Below are positions 17,203 to 25,886 of a stretch of DNA of 36,039 nucleotides, piece by piece. Origin of the DNA: Candidatus Hydrogenedentota bacterium (GTDB lineage: Bacteria; Hydrogenedentota; Hydrogenedentia; Hydrogenedentales; SLHB01); the NCBI GenBank assembly GCA_029974275.1, contig JARKSN010000093.1, forward strand, positions 1-36,039. Reading direction: 5' to 3'. Position 1 is the first letter of the stretch, and each line of letters opens with the position of its first letter. The notes below the pieces were generated by a model. The model saw only the letters and a program-made list of their open reading frames with translations. It did not search any database and had not been told where the DNA came from. The position numbers were made by a program, and so were the translations under genes.

Positions 17203-17336
17203 CCGGATTCCCCTTTCTTGACCGGAGCCGGGTTTCACGAAAAACTTGCTTTTTCCCTGCCGGATATGTAATGTTCGGTAAGGTCAAAGGTAATATGGTC
17301 AAGAGCGAGAAAATTATTTAGGCCGGTGATAGGGTG

Positions 17337-17365
17337 TTGACATTTGTACATCTGGATGGTATAGT
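17337..17365 (+). promoter_or_regulatory. Strong sigma70 promoter upstream of the peptide genes
   Basis: TTGACA (17337-42)-N17-TATAGT (17360-65) with TG extension and AT-rich upstream sequence. Confidence 0.75.
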
Positions 17366-17374
17366 ACACCATCC
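17354..17374. promoter_or_regulatory. Operator-like palindrome over the -10/+1 region
   Basis: GGATGGT-atagtac-ACCATCC, perfect 7-bp arms. Confidence 0.45.
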
Positions 17375-17438
17375 GTGGTGCGTTTAGGGTTACAATGGCT
17401 GGTAGTTGTGGGCTGGCGCCCCACGCAAGGAGGCAGCC

Positions 17439-17561
17439 GTGAAGCACGTTCGTAAAATATCGGCACTGCCCAGCGTTGCCGAAGACAACAAGCCCTTTGA
17501 TATTACGTTCATTACGGATATCATGCGGGCCTTCATCACCAAGAAGAGCGCCCAAACATAG
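17439..17561 (+). CDS. Putative RiPP precursor peptide 1 (40 aa): MKHVRKISALPSVAEDNKPFDITFITDIMRAFITKKSAQT
   Basis: AAGGAGG SD (17427-33) before GTG; shares the MKH leader and F..KK motif with the next two ORFs; below the ORF-track length cutoff. Confidence 0.8.
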   Translation: MKHVRKISALPSVAEDNKPFDITFITDIMRAFITKKSAQT

Positions 17562-17700
17562 GCCTCTTGGATAAGCGAGGAACTAGCCGCACGGTTCCAT
17601 GTGGGAACTAGGCGGAAAATGTAGTTCCGGGCCTGTTGCATACGTGAGAGTTATGCGGCGGCTCGAGGGGAAAACGGACAATGAACAAGGAGATTTCGCA

Positions 17701-17841
17701 ATGAAGCACATCAAGCACGTCACCGTGGCCAAGGCTGAGGCAAAGACCCTTCGCAGCGCCTTCGCGAATCTGAAGGAAGACCTGCAGAACGCTCTCGAAG
17801 CGTTCAAGGTGGAGAAGAAGGCCCCGGCGCAGCCCGAGTAA
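17701..17841 (+). CDS. Putative RiPP precursor peptide 2 (46 aa): MKHIKHVTVAKAEAKTLRSAFANLKEDLQNALEAFKVEKKAPAQPE
   Basis: AAGGAG SD (17687-92) before ATG; strongly biased codons (AAG, GCC, TTC, CTG); MKHIK start. Confidence 0.85.
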   Translation: MKHIKHVTVAKAEAKTLRSAFANLKEDLQNALEAFKVEKKAPAQPE

Positions 17842-17863
17842 TCGTACTCGAAGGAAGATCAAC

Positions 17864-17983
17864 GTGAAACACACGCGATTGGTGTCGAAAGTCCGCAAAG
17901 CGGATGCGTTTACTGATTTTTTGAACAGAGCGCAACGCGCTTGGTCGGACTTTGTGTTCGCCAAGAAAAATGCGGGTGGATAA
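17864..17983 (+). CDS. Putative RiPP precursor peptide 3 (39 aa): MKHTRLVSKVRKADAFTDFLNRAQRAWSDFVFAKKNAGG
   Basis: AAGGAAG SD before GTG 17864; MKH leader, A-D junction, FxxxKK motif. Confidence 0.8.
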   Translation: MKHTRLVSKVRKADAFTDFLNRAQRAWSDFVFAKKNAGG

Positions 17984-18004
17984 AAGATCGTAGGGTGTAT
18001 TCAG

Positions 18005-18043
18005 ATACCGGGGCTTCCTTGTGGAGTCCCGGTATTGTTTTGT
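18005..18043 (+). terminator. Terminator/attenuator-like hairpin between the precursor genes and the modification genes
   Basis: ataccggggcttc / ggagtcccggtat 13-bp stem (G-U pairs) followed by tgttttgt. Confidence 0.7.
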
Positions 18044-18124
18044 CTGTCGGCGCCGCGCGTATCCTGAAGCGGCATCATCCGGAAGACGTGGCGTAGCCTG
18101 CCGTAACTTCAAGATTGTTCAAAG

Positions 18125-18661
18125 ATGATACAGGGACTTCACACTTCCATACGAACGGCGGAACTCGACGACCTCGGCATGCTGAGCCAATTTTACGATC
18201 CGGAGCGTCCGCGTTCTCTTTATCTCGATCGACGATGCGAAGTATACTGTCCCACCAAGGACGAATTGCGCGAGATGCTGACGCGCCCGGATGTGCGCGC
18301 TTCGCTCGGATTCTTGGTCGTGGAGGACGCCGAGGGCGTAATCCGGGGTTTTTGCGCTCTGCGAGGCATCACCCAGGAAGCCGCGTTGGCGGATATGTTG
18401 CTGGGTTTTTTGGCCCCCCTCGATTTCGCCACGCCCGTGGCAGAGGAGACGTTCGCGTATCTCAAGCGCCGGGTCTTTACGGAACTGCGTCTGGAAAAGC
18501 TCATGGCGCGCTGCTTGGATTTCGAGAGCGAATATCGGCAATTCCTGATGCAGCAAGGCTTCACGAGCGACGGCGTGCAACGTGAAGTCGTGTATGCGAT
18601 GGGCGCCTACCACGACCTCGAGAGTTTCACGCTCGTTAAACAACCGGAGAGGACAGACTGA
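18125..18661 (+). CDS. RimJ/RimL-type GNAT N-acyltransferase (divergent)
   Basis: IRTAELDD N-terminus; VFTELRLEKLMA..GFTSDGVQREVVYAMGAYHD C-terminal signature. Confidence 0.75.
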   Translation: MIQGLHTSIRTAELDDLGMLSQFYDPERPRSLYLDRRCEVYCPTKDELREMLTRPDVRASLGFLVVEDAEGVIRGFCALRGITQEAALADMLLGFLAPLDFATPVAEETFAYLKRRVFTELRLEKLMARCLDFESEYRQFLMQQGFTSDGVQREVVYAMGAYHDLESFTLVKQPERTD

Positions 18662-18662
18662 C

Positions 18663-19298
18663 ATGGCGCTCAAAACCGGCATGTTCCTGCGCAGGGCCGA
18701 GCGGGATGACATGGATACGGTGGTCACCTGGATGGACGATCCGGATTTTCTGCATTTTTTGTATGGCGATCCCGTCCGATCTCCGAAGCAAATCCGCGAA
18801 CATCTTACGGCCGTTCTCGGTCGTAACGCTCCCAACACCGTGCCGTCTGGAATGTACCTCATCGTGGAATCGTCCGAGCATGGACCGGTCGGTCTGGTGT
18901 CCATTATGAACATAAGCTGGCGCAACCGATCGTGCAGTCTCGACGCCTACATCGGCAACAAGAGCCTGCGATCGGGCATGGTGGCGGGCATTTCCCTATA
19001 CCGCGCCATGGAATTCTGTTTCGACGAACTCAATCTGCACCGCATCACGACTTACATCTATTCTTTCAACAGTCCCTCGTGGAGGCTCATGGAACTGAGC
19101 GGGGCCAAGCGCGAACTTGTGATGCGCCATCATGTGCCGCGCGACGGGAAGCTGTATGACCTCTACGCGTACGGCCTGTTGCGCCGCGAGTTCGAGACTC
19201 TTCGGGAGCGACAGGCCGCTCGTTTCAAGGGGAAGTCGTTGGCGGAGATGATCGCCGCGCAACAAGAGGCCTTGGCCCAAGCGGAGACGGCCCCGTGA
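18663..19298 (+). CDS. RimJ/RimL-type GNAT N-acyltransferase
   Basis: FLRRAERDD, PVGLVSIMNISWRNRSC, FCFDELNLHRI..FNSPSWRLME, RDGKLYDLYAYGLLRREF; GGAGAGG SD. Confidence 0.88.
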   Translation: MALKTGMFLRRAERDDMDTVVTWMDDPDFLHFLYGDPVRSPKQIREHLTAVLGRNAPNTVPSGMYLIVESSEHGPVGLVSIMNISWRNRSCSLDAYIGNKSLRSGMVAGISLYRAMEFCFDELNLHRITTYIYSFNSPSWRLMELSGAKRELVMRHHVPRDGKLYDLYAYGLLRREFETLRERQAARFKGKSLAEMIAAQQEALAQAETAP

Positions 19299-20014
19299 TG
19301 CTCCTGTTGCAGGCGGCATTCTGGGGCATGCTGACGTTCCATCTTATCCACGCGCTGATGACGCACCGTGGAGGGGCGCCGGCGGCGCGCGGACGGTTTT
19401 CCAATTTCGTCCTCGTGTCCCAAACCCCCTTGTTCGTTATCGCATGCTATTTCACGGCATCCCAGGGCCTTTTTTCGCGGCAACTGGTATCGCCGCTGTA
19501 CATTGCCTTGGGGGTTGCCGCGGGACACTTGGTGTTTGGCGCTTCGCTGTTGATTACGCATCGTTCCTGGCGCGATGTCACCGCTTACTTCATCGATCTG
19601 AAGCCGATTTGGACGTTCCTCAAGGACAGTCCCCTGGTTTTCATGCGTTTTACGACGGTCGCGATCGTGGAGGAAATCATCTGGCGTTCCGCCGCCCAGC
19701 CCTTGTTGATTTCCGCGACGGGCCTTCCCCTGGTCGGCATACTTGCCGTTGCGGCGGCGTTTTGCATCGTGCACGAACATATTTTCACGAATCCCATCAT
19801 GGTCACCCTCGAGTTCCTCGGCTTTTCGCTTTTGTTGGGCGTTCTGTTTTATTTCACGCACAGTCTGATCTTGGTCATCGTGATCCATGCGGTGCGCGAC
19901 ATCGAGATCGCCTATCTTGAATATGCGGAGAAAGCGGATGAGTTGGGGGACCCGGAATTGGCTTTGCAGGAGTATGAGAAATCGTTGACCCGCCGGCATC
20001 TGGAGAAAGCATGA
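19295..20014 (+). CDS. CPBP (CAAX/Abi) family intramembrane metalloprotease
   Basis: Multiple TM segments; VEEIIWRS (EExxxR), FCIVH (FxxxH), IHAVRD (HxxxD/N); overlaps both neighbours. Confidence 0.88.
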   Translation: MMLLLQAAFWGMLTFHLIHALMTHRGGAPAARGRFSNFVLVSQTPLFVIACYFTASQGLFSRQLVSPLYIALGVAAGHLVFGASLLITHRSWRDVTAYFIDLKPIWTFLKDSPLVFMRFTTVAIVEEIIWRSAAQPLLISATGLPLVGILAVAAAFCIVHEHIFTNPIMVTLEFLGFSLLLGVLFYFTHSLILVIVIHAVRDIEIAYLEYAEKADELGDPELALQEYEKSLTRRHLEKA

Positions 20015-21027
20015 GCAGCGAATACGCCATTCACGTCGACAGTGTCGATAAGGTGTTTTACACCCGGCACTTCTTCAAACGGAATCCGGACACCAACCAA
20101 TTGAAATGGTATGAGAAACGGCATATTCATGCGGTGGACCATGTCCAGTTCGGCGTGCGGCCCGGTGAAATTTTCGGGTTGCTTGGCCCCAACGGCGCAG
20201 GCAAAACCACGACGGTCAAAATGCTCAGCGGCTTGGTGCGGCCCGACGGGGGCGCGGTGTATATCGACGGGCTCAATGTTGAAACGCGGCGCAAGCAGAT
20301 TCTCAGAAAGATCGGGGTCGTGCTCGAGGGCACGCGCACGGTGATTTGGCCGCTGACGCCGCTCGAGAACTTGGCCTATTTCGGCAATCTGCGCGATGTG
20401 CGCGGCTCCGTCCTCAAGAAACGCTCCCATGAATTGTTGGATTTCATCGGTCTGCGCGAGAAAAAAGACGTGCAGGTGCGCCGATTGTCTCGGGGGCAGA
20501 AGCAAAAACTGGCCATTTGCATCGCGCTGGTCACCGATCCGCACGTCATTTTGCTGGACGAGCCGACCACGGGGTTGGACGTGCAGAGCGGACGCAGCAT
20601 CAAAGAGAAAATCATCGAGATGACCCGCATGCACGGCAAGAGCGTTCTCGTGACCACGCATGACATGCATGTGGCCCAGGAACTGTGCGATCGCATCGGC
20701 ATTATTGATCGGGGCAAGCTGATTGCGTGCAAGACCACCGAGGAGATGCTGACGTTGAGCGGCGACCTCGTCTATGAGGTTCGTGTTGATCGCCCCCTCT
20801 CCCCCACGCTGCTCGCGGATATCGAAGGGGTGATTTCCGCCCGGGAATTGCCCGACGGCGAGGGATTCGGATGCGCGGTGCGGCTTGCGGCTGACGACGA
20901 ATCCCGTTCGCGCGCATTGTATGGCGTCATGGATCGTCTCAAGGCCAACCACTATAGGCTTCTTTCGATCGATCGCCACAAGCAAATGCTGGAAGACGTG
21001 TTCCTTAAACTTACGGGCGGCGCGTAG
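20011..21027 (+). CDS. ABC-2-type exporter ATP-binding protein
   Basis: GPNGAGKTT, LSRGQKQK, LLDEPTTGLD, TTHDM, C-terminal LEDVFLKLTG. Confidence 0.93.
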   Translation: MSSEYAIHVDSVDKVFYTRHFFKRNPDTNQLKWYEKRHIHAVDHVQFGVRPGEIFGLLGPNGAGKTTTVKMLSGLVRPDGGAVYIDGLNVETRRKQILRKIGVVLEGTRTVIWPLTPLENLAYFGNLRDVRGSVLKKRSHELLDFIGLREKKDVQVRRLSRGQKQKLAICIALVTDPHVILLDEPTTGLDVQSGRSIKEKIIEMTRMHGKSVLVTTHDMHVAQELCDRIGIIDRGKLIACKTTEEMLTLSGDLVYEVRVDRPLSPTLLADIEGVISARELPDGEGFGCAVRLAADDESRSRALYGVMDRLKANHYRLLSIDRHKQMLEDVFLKLTGGA

Positions 21028-21052
21028 CAGCGGCAAAGGAGTTTTTGCGCTC

Positions 21053-21982
21053 ATGGGTCTCTTTCTTGTGTTGAAAGCCGAGGTTGTACGAAGCCTCATT
21101 ACGATGCGCCGGTATTGGCTTGCGTCCCTGATCGGTCTCATCATCGGCTATGGCATGCTCATCGCGCTGATTTGGGCCTTTACCACTGGCGGCCAAAGCG
21201 CGGTGGGCGAGAAGATCAAGGAGGGCGTCACCTCGCGGGTCGTGGGCAGCGCGTCCCTGGAGGCGCCTCCCGAATCTTCCGGAACGGACGGGGAGCCTGT
21301 CGCCGTTCCCAAGCCTTCCGAATCCCCCAAGGAACGGGGCACGAAGATCATGAACGGCGTGTTGGGCTTGCTCATCGGGCTTTTCGCGTTTAGCATCATA
21401 GGCATGTTTTCGCAAGGGCTCGCGGGGATGGCGCAAAGCGGCGAGTTGGAGCAATTGTGCATGAGCCCGCATGGGTTGTTGGGCAATTTCCTGGCGCGTT
21501 CTTTTGTGTCGGCGCTCACCAACATCCTGTCTTCGTCGATCCTGGTGGCGCTGGTGTCGATCACGATTCCCGGCGGCGCGCTGCATTTCTCCGCCGGGGC
21601 CATTCCCGCATTGCTGGCGCTCACGTACGTGAACCTGTTGGGATTCGGCTTCATGGTCGGGGGGCTGGTGTTGGTGTTCAAACAGACTGGGCAAGTGGCC
21701 ATGTTGATTCAGATCGCCATGCTGTCGATGTCGATCGCCGCCTCCAAGAGCATGAGTGAATGGCCGTTGCTCATCCGAATTGTCGCCCATATCATGCCCA
21801 TGACGGACGCGACCGTGTGTCTCAAGCTGGTGTTGTTGGATGGCGTGGGCATGCAGGTCTTCTCGTATCCCTCGTTTTTCTTCCTGTTGATCAACTGTGC
21901 GGTGTGGACGAGCATCGGCATCGCTTGCTTCAAGTTCATGGAAAATTGGAGCCGCAACAAAGGAACCTTGGGGACGTATTAG
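21053..21982 (+). CDS. ABC-2-type exporter permease
   Basis: About 6 TM segments, GELEQLCMSP motif; AAGGAG SD before ATG 21053; directly follows the ATPase gene. Confidence 0.85.
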   Translation: MGLFLVLKAEVVRSLITMRRYWLASLIGLIIGYGMLIALIWAFTTGGQSAVGEKIKEGVTSRVVGSASLEAPPESSGTDGEPVAVPKPSESPKERGTKIMNGVLGLLIGLFAFSIIGMFSQGLAGMAQSGELEQLCMSPHGLLGNFLARSFVSALTNILSSSILVALVSITIPGGALHFSAGAIPALLALTYVNLLGFGFMVGGLVLVFKQTGQVAMLIQIAMLSMSIAASKSMSEWPLLIRIVAHIMPMTDATVCLKLVLLDGVGMQVFSYPSFFFLLINCAVWTSIGIACFKFMENWSRNKGTLGTY

Positions 21983-23911
21983 ATGGGCGAGCGCGTCGCG
22001 ATTCACCGCTTCGAACTGGATGGAAGGCGGTTTGCCATCGATCCGGAGACCTGTTTTTGCTTCGAGTGCGATGCGGTGTCGTGGGACGTGTTGGAGCACT
22101 ATCCCCATGAAACCGCGCAACGCATCTATCATCTGCTGGGCGATCGCCACGACCTTAAGGAACTGTCGGAAGTTCTTGGGGAACTTGAATGGTTGCGCGC
22201 CAGTAAATCCATCCTGCCGGCCTATACCCAGGAGGAACTGCAAAAACATTTTGAGATCGATTCCGGTCTCAAGCGAGTGACGGTTCGTCTGCCGCGCGAA
22301 TCAGGCGCGTCTTCTCCTGCGCGGCGCGGCTGGTTTGTCCGCGGCGCGGCTCAGCCTGCCCCAGGCATTGCCGGGAGAGTTCAGGAAGCCGTGACGTTGT
22401 TGCTGGGACGCAGTCAAAAGCAACAAGATCTCCACCTTGAGTTTATTGAGGAGCGTTCTCGTTTCAACCCGGAGGCGCTTGCCGGATTTTGCGTTTCCGC
22501 TATGCAATCCGCCTCGCTGGCAGGCAAGAATCTTACTGTGTCGTTTCGCGTCGACGGCGTCTCGCTTGATGGCATGGGCGGCGTTCTCCACGGACACAAC
22601 GTCTCGGCTGCGATTGAGTTTCGCGAATCCGCCGATGCGGCTCGCAGCTTGGCCGCTTTTGCCAAAGCCCTGGAGTCCCGGAGCCCCGAACGCCTTGCAA
22701 AGGCGATGCAGCCTGGCGGAGAGCACATCTCGGGGCGCCTCATCGTGCAGCCTGGGCATCCGGCTTTTGGCGGCGTGGCGGCGGCATTGCACCAGGCGGG
22801 TTTTACTCTGATAGAACTCGATCTGGACGGTTCTTTCGTCGTCCATCCGGAATTGGCCCCCGATGCGATGCTGCCGGCGATGACGGAAACCGCCGTAGCG
22901 TATGCGCAGACGCTGCTCAAGGGGGCGTATTTTCGTTTAGACCCTATCGCCACGTTGTTTTGGCGCATCTATAGCGGCCTTCCCATGCGGCGGACGGACC
23001 CGATTGGGACCAACGAGCTTGTCATTGACGAGGACGGGGCGGTATATCCTTCACGTCATTTCGTTGGCCTTTCGCCGTTCCGCTGCGGTTCCGTGGCGGA
23101 AGGGCGTCTTGATAATGACCGGATCAAGCCCTATGAGGACGTGGGGGCGTTGACTACGGCTCCGTGCATTGACTGTTGGGCGCGCCATCTGTGCGGCGGC
23201 GGAACCGCGGCGGTGCATCATGCGCTCACGGGCTCCTTTCGCACGCCGCATGAGGCATGGTGCGACGCCCACCGCGCCTGGCTGGCTTCGGCGGTTTCGG
23301 CGTTCAACATGCTGTCGTCGGCGGGCGTAAGTTTCACCAACCTGTATCATCGTTTGGGGAGATTGCCCCGCCCCTCCTTGTTTGCCATGGCGCGCGCCGC
23401 GTTTCGTCCTGGCATCGGTGTGCGTCCTATTGAAGAGAGCGATGCGGACTGGCTCGTGAAGTGGGAGAATTGGAACGAGGCGACCTATTTCACGTATTCC
23501 ATAGGAGGAGCCTTGCTCACTACCAAGTATGACCGCGAAATGGATGCGGCGCATCCTTCTCTGGACGTGCAGGAAATGGTGTTGACGAAAACCGACGGGA
23601 CCGCTTTCGGGTTGGTGCGCTTGCAGCCGGAAATGCTCGACGGCGTCGTGCGTGCGCGGGTGTATCTTCGTCATGAAGCGGACTATGCCGACGAATCCAT
23701 CCGCAAAGGGTTCCGGGGGCTGCTCAAGGAGGCCTTGGGGCATCAGTCGTTGCGTCGGGCGCTGGCGCCGGCAGGCGCGCATGACGCATCCTTGCGATCG
23801 TTCCTCGAGGGATCCGGTTTTACTCGGATCGGCGTTGAACGCGAGGGGCTCTATCTGCACGGTCGCTATCTTGACGTGTGGCATTACGAGGCTGTTTCTG
23901 ACGAATTGTGA
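21983..23911 (+). CDS. Degenerate CteB/ScfB-like RRE-radical SAM-SPASM protein fused to a C-terminal GNAT domain
   Basis: N-terminus IHRFELDGRRFAIDPET..DAVSWDVLEHY (RRE-like); no CxxxCxxC; SPASM-like LVIDEDGAVYPSRHFVG..GSV..CIDCWARHLCGGG..WC; GNAT VRPIEESD..GFTRIGVEREGLYLHGRYLD. Confidence 0.8.
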   Translation: MGERVAIHRFELDGRRFAIDPETCFCFECDAVSWDVLEHYPHETAQRIYHLLGDRHDLKELSEVLGELEWLRASKSILPAYTQEELQKHFEIDSGLKRVTVRLPRESGASSPARRGWFVRGAAQPAPGIAGRVQEAVTLLLGRSQKQQDLHLEFIEERSRFNPEALAGFCVSAMQSASLAGKNLTVSFRVDGVSLDGMGGVLHGHNVSAAIEFRESADAARSLAAFAKALESRSPERLAKAMQPGGEHISGRLIVQPGHPAFGGVAAALHQAGFTLIELDLDGSFVVHPELAPDAMLPAMTETAVAYAQTLLKGAYFRLDPIATLFWRIYSGLPMRRTDPIGTNELVIDEDGAVYPSRHFVGLSPFRCGSVAEGRLDNDRIKPYEDVGALTTAPCIDCWARHLCGGGTAAVHHALTGSFRTPHEAWCDAHRAWLASAVSAFNMLSSAGVSFTNLYHRLGRLPRPSLFAMARAAFRPGIGVRPIEESDADWLVKWENWNEATYFTYSIGGALLTTKYDREMDAAHPSLDVQEMVLTKTDGTAFGLVRLQPEMLDGVVRARVYLRHEADYADESIRKGFRGLLKEALGHQSLRRALAPAGAHDASLRSFLEGSGFTRIGVEREGLYLHGRYLDVWHYEAVSDEL

Positions 23912-23972: not shown

Positions 23973-25886
23973 GTGATTCTATGCGCTTTGTTTTTGGCCG
24001 CTGTTGCACTAATGCTGTTGTTGTCTGATCGCGCCCATGCCGATGGCTCGGAATTCACCGTCGAGCCAGGGCCTGGACCTTTTCCATGGACGCATCTCTC
24101 TCCTCAAAACGACGCCCGCAATTTTCACTTCGCCATCCTGGCCGATCGCAGCGGCGGCATTCGCGATGGCCGCTTTGAACACATTGTCGATCGCCTCAAT
24201 CTTTTGCGCCCCGAGTTCGTTGTGCATATCGGCGACATTATCGAAGGGGCTCCCAACGATATGGCCGAAGTCAACGCGCAATGGGACGAGGCCTTTGAAC
24301 TCATCAAGCCGATCGAGGCGCCCCTCTTCATCGTACCCGGCAATCACGATGTGAATAATCTTGCCCAGGCCAAGGTCTGGGAAGAACGGCTGGGGAGGCT
24401 CTACTATCATTTCCTGTACCAAAATGTCCTATTTCTTGTGCTGCACACCGAGGACCCTCCCGGAAAGCAAATCAGCGCCGATCAAGTCGCCTATGCCGCG
24501 CGCGTGCTTGCCGATCATCCGGATGTTCGGTGGACCTTCGTGTTGCTGCACGTGCCGTTGTGGATGTATTCGCACGAGCATCGGTGGGAAGAGATCGAGG
24601 CCTGTCTTGCGGGGCGCAAGCACACCGTTCTAGCGGGCCATATGCACGAATACATCAAATACGTTCGTAACAATGCGAGCCACATCGTTCTTGCGGCGAG
24701 CGGGGCGTGGACTTTTGGACGTGGCCCGGAATACGGCGAGTTCGATCACATTACGTGGATTGCGATGGACGACAATGGCCCGCGCATCACGAACTTGCTG
24801 GTTGACGGCATCCGCAATGAAAACGTCAACACCATCGAGATGCGCAAGGCGCTCATGCCTGTGCGCCGGGGCGAGATCGTCACCTCGACGGGCGCGTGGT
24901 GTTCGGGCGATCTTTTCACGGGCGGCGCCACCCGGCTGCGTTTGTGGAACCCGCTTGATCGCCCCATGGATTTTCAACTGCTTTTGCACCCTTCGCGCCA
25001 AATGGAGCCCAGCGTCACGGCCATTGAGCGCACGCTTGCCCCGCGCGAGGATCATTACGTTGAAGTCCGCCTGCACGCCCCCTCTCCCCTTTCGTTTCGC
25101 GAGATAGACCCGCTTCGTGCGACGTGGCGCATCGCTTGTGATTTTCCGGGCCGTGAGCGCGTGCACATGCATGGCGCGCATCGTATCGTCGTCGATGGCG
25201 TCCATGTCTGTCCGCGCCGGACGTTTGATGGAGCCGTGGATGCGCAGCTTGATAAATGGGGCGAGTTGCCGTGGCGTTGTCTCGAACCCGGGCAAATCTC
25301 GCAGTGTCCTGACCAGTGGGCCGGGCCCGCGGACTGTTCGTTCCGTTTTGCCACTGCCTACGACGAGGATTACGTGTATGTCGCGGTGCGCGTGACCGAT
25401 GACGTTCCCATGTTTCGGGGACGCAAAGACCCTTGGCGCAAGGACGCCGTCATCATTCTTCTCGACGCCCGGTCGGAATCGGAGCGAACGACATTGGACC
25501 ACCGTTGGGTGAACACGGAGATGGAGTGGGAACTGGCGCGGATGTACGGACGCTACCCCGGTCCAGGGGCGTTCCGCGACTATCTGTTCTTGGGTGTGTC
25601 GTTGGGCGCGACGCCTGAGGAATGCACGATCTACGAAGAGCATTTGCAGCCTGCGGGACTGCGCTATGCCTCTCGTCTGGAACCGGGCGGCTATGCCGTC
25701 GAGGTGGCGGTTCCTGCCGCATACCTCAACGCCCGGCAGAATTATTCCTGGAACGCCTTTCGTTTGAACATCAGCGTTTTCGACTGCGACGGCAATTACG
25801 CAGGTCCTCACAAGGCCCTGTGGTGGCGACCTTCCTGGAGCAGCGCCGAGAGCGTTCCGAACCAAGGACTTTTCCGGAAAGGGTGA
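23973..25886 (+). CDS. Secreted calcineurin-like metallophosphoesterase with C-terminal CBM9/DOMON-like domain
   Basis: Signal peptide ..AHA; ILADRSGG, HIGDIIEG, PGNHD, LLHVP, AGHMH; C-terminal VDAQLDKW..YDEDYVYVAVRVTDD..DAVIILLD..YAVEVAVP. Confidence 0.8.
   Translation: MILCALFLAAVALMLLLSDRAHADGSEFTVEPGPGPFPWTHLSPQNDARNFHFAILADRSGGIRDGRFEHIVDRLNLLRPEFVVHIGDIIEGAPNDMAEVNAQWDEAFELIKPIEAPLFIVPGNHDVNNLAQAKVWEERLGRLYYHFLYQNVLFLVLHTEDPPGKQISADQVAYAARVLADHPDVRWTFVLLHVPLWMYSHEHRWEEIEACLAGRKHTVLAGHMHEYIKYVRNNASHIVLAASGAWTFGRGPEYGEFDHITWIAMDDNGPRITNLLVDGIRNENVNTIEMRKALMPVRRGEIVTSTGAWCSGDLFTGGATRLRLWNPLDRPMDFQLLLHPSRQMEPSVTAIERTLAPREDHYVEVRLHAPSPLSFREIDPLRATWRIACDFPGRERVHMHGAHRIVVDGVHVCPRRTFDGAVDAQLDKWGELPWRCLEPGQISQCPDQWAGPADCSFRFATAYDEDYVYVAVRVTDDVPMFRGRKDPWRKDAVIILLDARSESERTTLDHRWVNTEMEWELARMYGRYPGPGAFRDYLFLGVSLGATPEECTIYEEHLQPAGLRYASRLEPGGYAVEVAVPAAYLNARQNYSWNAFRLNISVFDCDGNYAGPHKALWWRPSWSSAESVPNQGLFRKG

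Follow-up and report, generated by a model that had tools for sequence, protein, structure and literature searches.

A 642-aa protein is encoded on the forward strand of contig JARKSN010000093.1 of a Candidatus Hydrogenedentota bacterium, within a stretch of 36,039 nucleotides that was analyzed as a whole and is called the window below. The protein is a relic of a radical S-adenosylmethionine (SAM) maturase resembling CteB: the cysteine motif of the SAM-cleaving cluster, the GGE-type SAM-binding motif and the cysteines of auxiliary cluster I (AuxI) are absent, the four cysteine ligands of auxiliary cluster II (AuxII) are retained, and a GNAT domain is found at the C-terminus. This relic is maintained by purifying selection. 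It probably serves as a non-radical scaffold, derived from a maturase of the SCIFF type, which binds the leader of a small peptide encoded in the same operon and presents the peptide for acyl transfer. The evidence is computational throughout.

Motif losses and predicted fold of the 642-aa protein

The initial annotation had described an intact reading frame of 642 codons, colinear with CteB, and both statements were borne out. The end coordinate given there, 23410, however, covered only residues 1-476; the open reading frame continues into a further domain, to position 23911. In a phmmer search of the chains of the Protein Data Bank, CteB (5wgg_A) was the best sequence match (E 2.4e-18). The alignment consisted of two stretches in ungapped register, one between query 6-196 and CteB 6-196, and the other between query 343-432 and CteB 351-440. 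CteB CNLRCKYC faces a Cys-free stretch of the query (..RESGASSP..ARRGWF), and CteB FFGGEP faces FIEERS. At the AuxI positions, S357 and T408 face C365 and C416 of CteB, and at the AuxII positions C395, C398, C404 and C427 face C403, C406, C412 and C435 with identical spacing.

Residue D339 lies four residues before the second CteB-aligned stretch. Its equivalence to CteB position 347 was obtained by extrapolating the ungapped register and was confirmed by a further alignment (A2) of 15 rows, where this column holds Cys in the five true radical SAM relatives and likewise in the basal family members P0160, P0162 and P0166. The FFGGEP motif of CteB and of the five true relatives, at the end of barrel strand 2, was aligned to FIEERS, and the family consensus at this position is LEFxE. 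The pattern of lost and retained motifs set out in the initial annotation was thereby confirmed in every detail that could be checked.

Of the seven Cys in the SPASM motif, the first, second and sixth were taken as ligands of AuxI, and those of CX2CX5C together with the last one as ligands of AuxII. In the accessible part of PMC5715301, the motif CX9-15GX4C..CX2CX5CX3C..C is described as binding two auxiliary clusters, with Cys255, 261, 276 and 330 as the AuxI ligands and Cys317, 320, 326 and 348 as the AuxII ligands of anSMEcpe; the assignment for CteB rests on homology to this enzyme. The initial annotation's description of CteB, in which an open AuxI site binds a substrate cysteine and AuxII is fully ligated, agrees with the accessible part of PMC6231123, where a cysteine of CteA fills the site.

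The AlphaFold2 model was built on 37 family sequences and reached a mean predicted local distance difference test value (pLDDT) of 82.9. Only two long low-confidence stretches were present, namely residues 107-125 in the former cluster loop, which has pLDDT <50 and is predicted to be disordered, and the linker 461-475. CteB ranked first in Foldseek (E 9.7e-17, template modeling score 0.73 on target), and 5wgg_A was also the best fold match in VIA-align (Z 26.8, root-mean-square deviation (rmsd) 3.3 Å, 384 residues aligned, model 4-445 against CteB 1-450). The other radical SAM fold matches were anSMEcpe and ChlB (both Z 19.6) and TigE (Z 18.2). The middle region therefore has the radical SAM fold, a partial (beta/alpha)6 TIM barrel, and is located between an RRE and a SPASM domain, as had been proposed for checking by model and Foldseek. 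The modeled RRE consists of strands 8-12, 15-19 and 26-29 and helices 31-37, 45-52 and 58-73, which fits the three strands and three helices of a PqqD-like RiPP recognition element.

TIGR04085, whose cut-off is 27 bits, recognized the SPASM domain (TIGR04085 / PF13186) with 35.3 bits over residues 342-425, and searching the genome gave 39.8 bits; four of the seven motif Cys are present (CX2CX5C and the last). The Radical_SAM and SCIFF maturase profiles, which had been named for the same check, gave no assignment. No Pfam family, Radical_SAM (PF04055) included, matched the whole protein at E up to 0.1, and the SCIFF maturase model TIGR03974 (56.2 bits, cut-off 425) and the ScfB-related model NF040492 (57.6 bits, cut-off 855) remained below their cut-offs.

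For residues 476-642, the GNAT fold was assigned by Foldseek with a probability of 1.00. In VIA-align, many GNATs superimposed on it with an rmsd of 2.7-3.3 Å, and Z was about 15-17 for AAC(6')-Ib, SpeG, RimL and 9iy3, a lasso-peptide acetyltransferase. When the C-terminal domains of 30 orthologues were combined into a profile, it matched YdaF (1nsl, 5.1e-6), RimL (1s7k and 1z9u, ~2e-5) and RimJ (3igr, 2.6e-4). PF13420 matched 25 of these 30 domains, in which 21 columns are invariant.

Conservation, selection and order of the cluster losses

At E up to 0.001, 269 relatives were obtained in a protein search, of which the best 120 had lengths of 613-674 aa and identities of 48-56%. Where these carried a name, it was nearly always that of a metagenome-assembled genome of Candidatus Hydrogenedentes/Hydrogenedentota, one being labeled Bathyarchaeia. 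The species-level genome set contained 175 stretches coding for a relative. Of the 135 Hydrogenedentota genomes, 116 gave a match with the basal protein P0160 as query, as did 78 of the 86 high-quality ones; the match was nearly always in single copy, and no internal stop was present among the matches listed from this phylum-wide search.

Among 69 full-length orthologues, CxxxCxxC was looked for anywhere in the sequence and found in none, the GGE motif was absent from all, and the four AuxII Cys were present in all. It was evident that the protein is not a canonical radical SAM enzyme, and close homologues keeping CxxxCxxC, which would have marked this copy as a recent degenerate allele, were likewise not found in this set. 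Orthologues sharing the pattern are 38-55% identical. The AuxII Cys were also present in 15/15 rows of alignment A2, true radical SAM enzymes among them. At the former AuxI positions, residue 339 is D in 68/69 orthologues, residue 357 is mostly S (55 orthologues) and otherwise G (8), C (3), N (2) or A (1), and position 408 holds 13 different residues. D339 (22997-22999), which replaces the first AuxI Cys, and H412 (23216-23218; 69/69), four residues past the sixth-Cys position, flank the former AuxI site. These two residues may constitute a new site where the AuxI pocket used to be.

The ratio of nonsynonymous to synonymous substitution rates (dN/dS) was determined per domain by the Nei-Gojobori method for 12 close pairs. 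Values were 0.00-0.12 for the RRE, 0.03-0.18 for SPASM, 0.01-0.17 for GNAT and 0.02-0.44 for the barrel, where 11 of the 12 pairs yielded a value. The former cluster loop was the least constrained segment, with values up to 0.65. With the exception of this relic and of a 17-residue linker, dN/dS was thus below 0.5, that is, in each folded domain. The spread over 116/135 genomes, the uniform pattern in 69/69 orthologues and the dN/dS values all support the initial annotation in its claim that the losses reflect selection and not decay.

A feature overlooked in the initial annotation is the invariant triad C24, C26 and C29 in the RRE, the sole place where an alternative cluster might be bound. 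One helical turn past C29 lies position 33 (residues 24-33 correspond to 22052-22081), which is mostly S (61 of the 69 orthologues) and otherwise C (6) or T (2), and Cys at this position yields CxCxxCxxxC in 6/69. The triad is absent from the basal forms P0160, P0162 and P0166, where CFVFETD, SFVFELD and CFVFEID, respectively, stand in its place, and two of its three Cys are present in P0154 and P0156. On this distribution, the triad is a late gain. The family member P0155 (511 aa), which has the triad and the AuxII pattern, stops short of the GNAT domain and could represent a split or truncated form.

The three basal proteins, picked from 50%-identity representatives, are long and GNAT-bearing; they lack CxxxCxxC and GGE and keep all seven SPASM Cys. 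P0162 originates from a genome of a different order of the same phylum (G001), with the same operon and M-K-H peptides. Relatives of P0160 at E up to 1e-10 were only the protein itself and one radical SAM protein. Quick maximum-likelihood trees with long branches were rooted on true radical SAM/SPASM maturases, and the rooting depends on this outgroup. In these trees, the GNAT-fused proteins without the SAM cluster formed one clade (Shimodaira-Hasegawa-like approximate likelihood ratio test, SH-aLRT, 99-100), and the family was nested inside the SCIFF-type maturases. The three AuxI-keeping forms branched first, and the AuxI-less forms constituted a clade (SH-aLRT 100). In the simplest history, loss of the SAM cluster would coincide with the GNAT fusion or fall close to it, AuxI would have gone later, and AuxII would have been kept throughout.

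Two further RRE-bearing SPASM proteins, P0196 (484 aa) and P0259 (472 aa), have no CxxxCxxC and only an AuxII-type Cys pattern; GGEP is kept and the GNAT domain is missing. The free tree placed them apart from the family. The trees do not establish an independent origin as a second SAM-cluster-less, AuxII-only family; one constrained to join all SAM-cluster-less forms had a log-likelihood 32 higher and an approximately unbiased test value (p-AU) of 0.925.

Operon, peptide family and predicted leader docking

The 642-aa gene is the last in a tight operon of overlapping or abutting genes (Table 1). Synteny was evaluated at the 47 loci where the upstream flank was 4.6 kb or longer. GNAT2, the CPBP protease, the ABC ATPase and the ABC permease were located directly upstream in this order in 46 of them, and GNAT1 was included in 42. 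In the sole exception (L009:1-7000), the permease alone was found upstream of the orthologue.

Small open reading frames with the leader motif were searched on both strands of all loci and of the window, with H, R, K, Q or N allowed as the third residue. Of the 150 frames found, 122 were situated on the + strand 3.3-6.5 kb upstream of an orthologue, a zone that amounts to 8.7% of the searched strand space. These 122 peptides are distributed over 44 loci, of which the window is one, and each locus has one to five of them. They share the leader consensus M-K-H-h-[RK]-x-h-[ST], with His as the third residue in 116/122. A core lysine is present in 121/122, most often with five residues after the last lysine. 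No meaningful Pfam or NCBIfam family was found for the peptides.

The multi-copy family (38-73 aa) is represented by positions 17439-17983 of the window and by 43 related loci (e.g., L044:2021-3059 and L060:1545-2708). At least four core classes were distinguished: an amphipathic class, ..ADAF.DF.N..W.AW.DF.Y.KKNE; hydrophobic helix classes ending in K-E, K-D-P and K-N-P; and a two-Cys class, C-T-x-I-x-S-D-Y-Q-A-x-L-C-F. In the pepC class (alignment A3, 31 sequences), M1, H3, A13 and K34 are invariant.

According to the initial annotation, the selective loss of ligands fits Cys-free precursors. This applies to the window only, as 26/122 peptides of the family contain Cys, 14 of them two or more. 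Basal P0162, which keeps the AuxI Cys yet adjoins three Cys-free peptides, also speaks against such a link.

Four metatranscriptome runs yielded contigs that are identical to the window and together span 17313-17997, with the peptide genes represented in 4/4 runs. In three runs, contigs stop at 17992-17997, just ahead of the terminator-like hairpin, which hints weakly at a transcript of the peptide genes alone. The start of one contig, at 17313, lies upstream of the predicted -35 hexamer. Three promoter-like sites were found in the region, compared with 0.7 expected. The operon genes were covered in the four runs only by short contigs, at 20215-20493 and 21301-21492. No contig of these runs fell on 21983-23911, from which neither absence nor level of the transcript can be read, as contigs and not reads were evaluated.

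Two candidates for additional components were rejected. The downstream gene for a 637-aa calcineurin-like phosphoesterase/CBM9 protein with a hydrophobic N-terminus (23973-25886) gave 0 tblastn matches in 76 loci and was not retained as an operon member. The only other SPASM match in the same genome (L084:1478-2695, genome G000, contig C257) was considered as an active partner enzyme and has no link to the operon. It is a canonical radical SAM gene (CNLRCTYC, GGGEP) on another contig, among ketoacyl-synthase-like genes, and is probably part of a lipid or polyketide-like cluster.

Docking of the leader was predicted by co-folding the full protein (alignment A1) with pepC (alignment A3), one [4Fe-4S] cluster and one zinc ion being included. 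The complex score was 0.83 (runs 0.83, 0.00 and 0.85), compared with 0.01 for the best of three controls. Of 157 solved complexes, 116 reach this mark, as do 2 of 215 mismatched pairs; with own alignments and small molecules in the input, these counts are a rough guide here. Agreement of contacts between the runs is at least 0%, and the pLDDT of the partner is at least 30. Peptide residues 1-11 are predicted to contact residues 17-18, 23-30 (strand beta3), 32-33, 60-76 (helix), 329-332 and 438-452. Within this leader, residues 4-8 follow residues 25-28 of the protein, and His3 of the peptide touches D30, residues 32-33, E63, V64 and E67; D30, E63, V64 and E67 are invariant in 69/69 orthologues. 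In CteB, according to the accessible part of PMC6231123, the CteA leader likewise pairs with RRE strand beta3, which lies about 33 Å from the active-site side. Leader binding by the RRE is thus supported by the predicted complex. A metal site at the Cys triad, perhaps completed by His3 of the leader, is possible.

Table 1. Coordinates of the 642-aa protein, its domains and the upstream operon in the window
Feature	Position	Strand	Evidence
Sigma-70-like promoter, TTGACA, 17 nt, TATAGT; TG before the second hexamer	17337..17365	+	11/12 hexamer matches, consensus only
pepA, 40-aa Cys-free precursor-like peptide, GTG start, MKHVRKIS leader	17439..17561	+	Member of the upstream peptide family
pepB, 46-aa Cys-free precursor-like peptide, MKHIKHVT leader	17701..17841	+	Small-ORF scan; no Pfam/NCBIfam match
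pepC, 39-aa Cys-free precursor-like peptide, best-conserved class ..ADAF.DF.N...RAW.DF....KKNE	17864..17983	+	Alignment A3
Terminator-like hairpin, 14-pair stem and T-rich tail, between peptide and enzyme genes	18004..18046	+	
GNAT1, 178 aa, divergent	18125..18661	+	Acetyltransf_4 E 3.5e-4, below gathering score
GNAT2, RimJ/RimL-type (Acetyltransf_3)	18663..19298	+	PF13302 E 2.4e-14; 52-68% identical across loci
CPBP (Rce1-like) intramembrane protease; start overlaps GNAT2 stop	19295..20014	+	PF02517 E 2e-10
ABC transporter ATPase; start overlaps CPBP stop (ATGA)	20011..21027	+	PF00005 E 3.8e-29
ABC-2 type permease, start approximate; stop abuts the 642-aa gene	21029..21982	+	ABC2_membrane E 7.8e-6, ABC2_membrane_3 E 1e-6
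642-aa protein: RRE, radical-SAM barrel relic, SPASM with AuxII site only, GNAT domain	21983..23911	+	Intact ORF, sequence and predicted-fold matches
RRE-like winged-helix leader-binding domain, residues 1-95	21983..22267	+	CteB 6-95 alignment, predicted peptide interface, dN/dS 0.00-0.12
C24, C26 and C29 codons (CFCFEC), in and beside RRE strand beta3	22052..22069	+	Cys in 69/69 orthologues
SAM-cluster loop relic, Cys-free, residues 96-128	22268..22366	+	Aligned to CNLRCxYC of true relatives; dN/dS up to 0.65
Partial TIM-barrel core, GGE motif absent, residues 129-320	22367..22942	+	pLDDT mostly >85; dN/dS 0.02-0.44
SPASM domain, residues 321-460; D339/S357/T408 at AuxI, C395/C398/C404/C427 at AuxII	22943..23362	+	TIGR04085, alignments
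RimL/RimJ-like GNAT domain, residues 476-642	23408..23908	+	Foldseek, VIA-align, orthologue-domain profile

Proposed role, alternatives and related systems

Computation established the motif losses and the order in which they occurred, the fold and its conservation under selection, the operon and the peptide family, and the proposed scaffold role starts from these. The RRE would bind the M-K-H-h-[RK]-x-h-[ST] leader of the peptides at the head of the operon, and the barrel would be kept as a structural body. The AuxII site would most likely hold a structural [4Fe-4S] cluster. The peptide core would be presented to the protein's own GNAT domain, perhaps also to GNAT1 and GNAT2, for N-acylation, the likely target being the invariant core lysine or a new N-terminus. 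The CPBP protease would then trim the peptide, and the ABC-2 transporter would export it. The initial annotation had spoken of a structural, non-catalytic scaffold. The loss of radical chemistry holds, given the motifs (0/69); the word non-catalytic is incomplete, as it overlooks residues 476-642, a GNAT domain that is possibly catalytic.

Several points weigh against the proposed role. The acyl-CoA pyrophosphate-binding loop of GNATs is Q/R-x-x-G-x-G/A, and in the HMMER alignments the Gly-x-Gly of YdaF/RimL faces a non-Gly stretch of the family, although another register through R574-K-G-F-R may apply. The GNAT domain of the window is itself divergent, with 0 Pfam families at E up to 0.01, and for these two reasons acyl-CoA binding is uncertain. 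In the co-fold, only peptide residues 1-11 were placed and the core was not, and one of the three runs scored 0.00. Since the predicted mode is that of CteA on CteB, and solved RRE-leader complexes exist (CteB-CteA, 5WGG; ChlB-ChlA, 9GM3), the docking result may reflect likeness to solved relatives. The Cys triad has no role in an explanation by scaffolding and acyl transfer, and the AuxII site could hold zinc, or nothing, instead of a cluster. Finally, a peptide cluster of the antibiotic type is not usually found in single copy in nearly all genomes of a phylum, and a housekeeping role may apply instead.

The main rival is that both the barrel and the fused GNAT domain are dead, the protein being a leader-binding adaptor or chaperone for GNAT1/GNAT2 or for the protease and exporter. 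We regard this as unlikely, although it has to be taken seriously. The degenerate loop and the missing Pfam match would be explained directly, and GNAT1 and GNAT2 are conserved in the operon, the latter with a clear PF13302 match. RimL-type GNATs act as dimers, and a dead domain could therefore pair with a live one. However, the fused domain is constrained like the RRE and SPASM domains, and its 21 invariant columns and the PF13420 matches in 25/30 orthologues speak against a dead domain; motif degeneracy by itself is no proof of lost CoA binding.

A more far-reaching version of the proposed role, which taken as a whole is improbable, is that the operon makes an undescribed class of ribosomal peptide. 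The leader would be read through a metal site shared between C24/C26/C29 and its own His3, the latter taking the place of the Cys33 found in 6/69 orthologues. The GNAT domains would acylate the invariant core lysine, possibly with a lipid, and the CPBP protease would remove the short tail that follows this residue, in analogy to CAAX proteases, which trim after a lipidated cysteine. If this is true, the stepwise loss of the SAM cluster and then AuxI, with AuxII never lost, would mark the distal SPASM cluster as a structural element of the fold.

We attach little weight to a function as a redox or metal sensor, in which the AuxII cluster, the triad or both would respond to oxygen or metal and gate peptide binding or acyl transfer. 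Two invariant Cys sites have been kept despite the lost radical chemistry, the triad overlaps the predicted leader-binding surface, and the near-universal single-copy distribution suggests a physiological role. On the other hand, AuxII is buried and fully ligated in homologues, as far as the accessible part of PMC6231123 describes them, and its invariance extends to active relatives, which fits a structural role as well.

Continued radical SAM activity, with C24/C26/C29 binding a site-differentiated [4Fe-4S] that replaces the CxxxCxxC cluster and cleaves SAM, is very unlikely. The triad is invariant in 69/69 and offers the three Cys required, and non-canonical cluster motifs exist in the radical SAM superfamily. 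The position of the triad in RRE strand beta3 (remote from the active-site side of CteB in the description of PMC6231123), the lost GGE motif and the absence of the triad from basal members nevertheless tell against it. The model puts the leader on the triad residues themselves. P0160, P0162 and P0166 have neither CxxxCxxC nor the triad, with the operon kept where this could be checked (P0162), and P0154 and P0156 have two of the three Cys only. The last alternative, a recent degenerate allele of an active maturase, would account for motif loss in a single copy and is refuted for practical purposes by the same pattern in 69/69 orthologues at 38-55% identity, the spread over 116/135 genomes with no internal stops among the matches listed, the purifying selection on each folded domain and the confidently predicted fold.

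When compared with known systems, the CteB/SCIFF-type thioether maturases (5WGG/5WHY; TIGR03974, NF040492) share the order of RRE, barrel and SPASM, the identical AuxII spacing and the leader position on RRE beta3, predicted here. The 642-aa protein differs from them by the absence of CxxxCxxC, GGE and the AuxI Cys and by the added C-terminal GNAT domain and RRE Cys triad, and the neighboring peptides of its family are mostly Cys-poor. Twitch enzymes (BtrN, MoaA, SkfB) also have a SPASM-type domain with one auxiliary cluster. In the accessible parts of PMC5715301 and PMC6231123, Twitch is described as a shortened SPASM domain without CX2CX5CX3C that keeps the proximal AuxI. The present family is the inverse, as the domain is full-length, CX2CX5C is present, AuxI is lost and AuxII is kept; moreover, Twitch enzymes are active radical enzymes.

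SAM-cluster-less SPASM proteins are already recognized in annotation, as evident from the curated NCBIfam name of TIGR04347, 'pseudo-SAM/SPASM protein'. This family was not among the 15 NCBIfam families listed for the 642-aa protein at E up to 10. PqqD and the E1-like 'C' protein of azoline-forming cyclodehydratases are non-catalytic leader-binding partners and follow the same logic, in which the leader is bound by a unit that performs no chemistry itself, or has ceased to, and the core is delivered to another, catalytic unit. Those proteins, in contrast, are not derived from radical SAM enzymes and have no Fe-S site. The RimL/RimJ N-acetyltransferases and peptide-acylating GNATs such as 9IY3, an iterative lasso-peptide acetyltransferase according to the accessible part of bioRxiv 10.1101/2024.12.31.630886, have the same fold as residues 476-642, and GNAT2 shares PF13302. 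Here, by contrast, the GNAT domain is fused to a dead RRE-bearing maturase, and the pyrophosphate-loop glycines are not kept in the HMMER alignment. No paper on the family was found in the open-access literature, subscription journals and bioRxiv supplements lying outside this search.

Radical SAM/SPASM maturases are a main handle for new ribosomal peptide natural products. Since genome mining normally requires CxxxCxxC, this family and its peptides are invisible to it. The family is also a natural experiment on the SPASM domain, in which first the SAM cluster and then the proximal cluster was removed and the distal one never; it bears on the long-open question of the function of AuxII, for which the order of losses predicts a structural role. 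It would also be a tangible example of an enzyme that has become a module for docking substrate in the service of another chemistry. The peptide system is present in most genomes of an uncultured phylum that is common in wastewater and sludge metagenomes, and this phylum-wide spread suggests a role in the physiology of the organisms themselves and not in antagonism alone.

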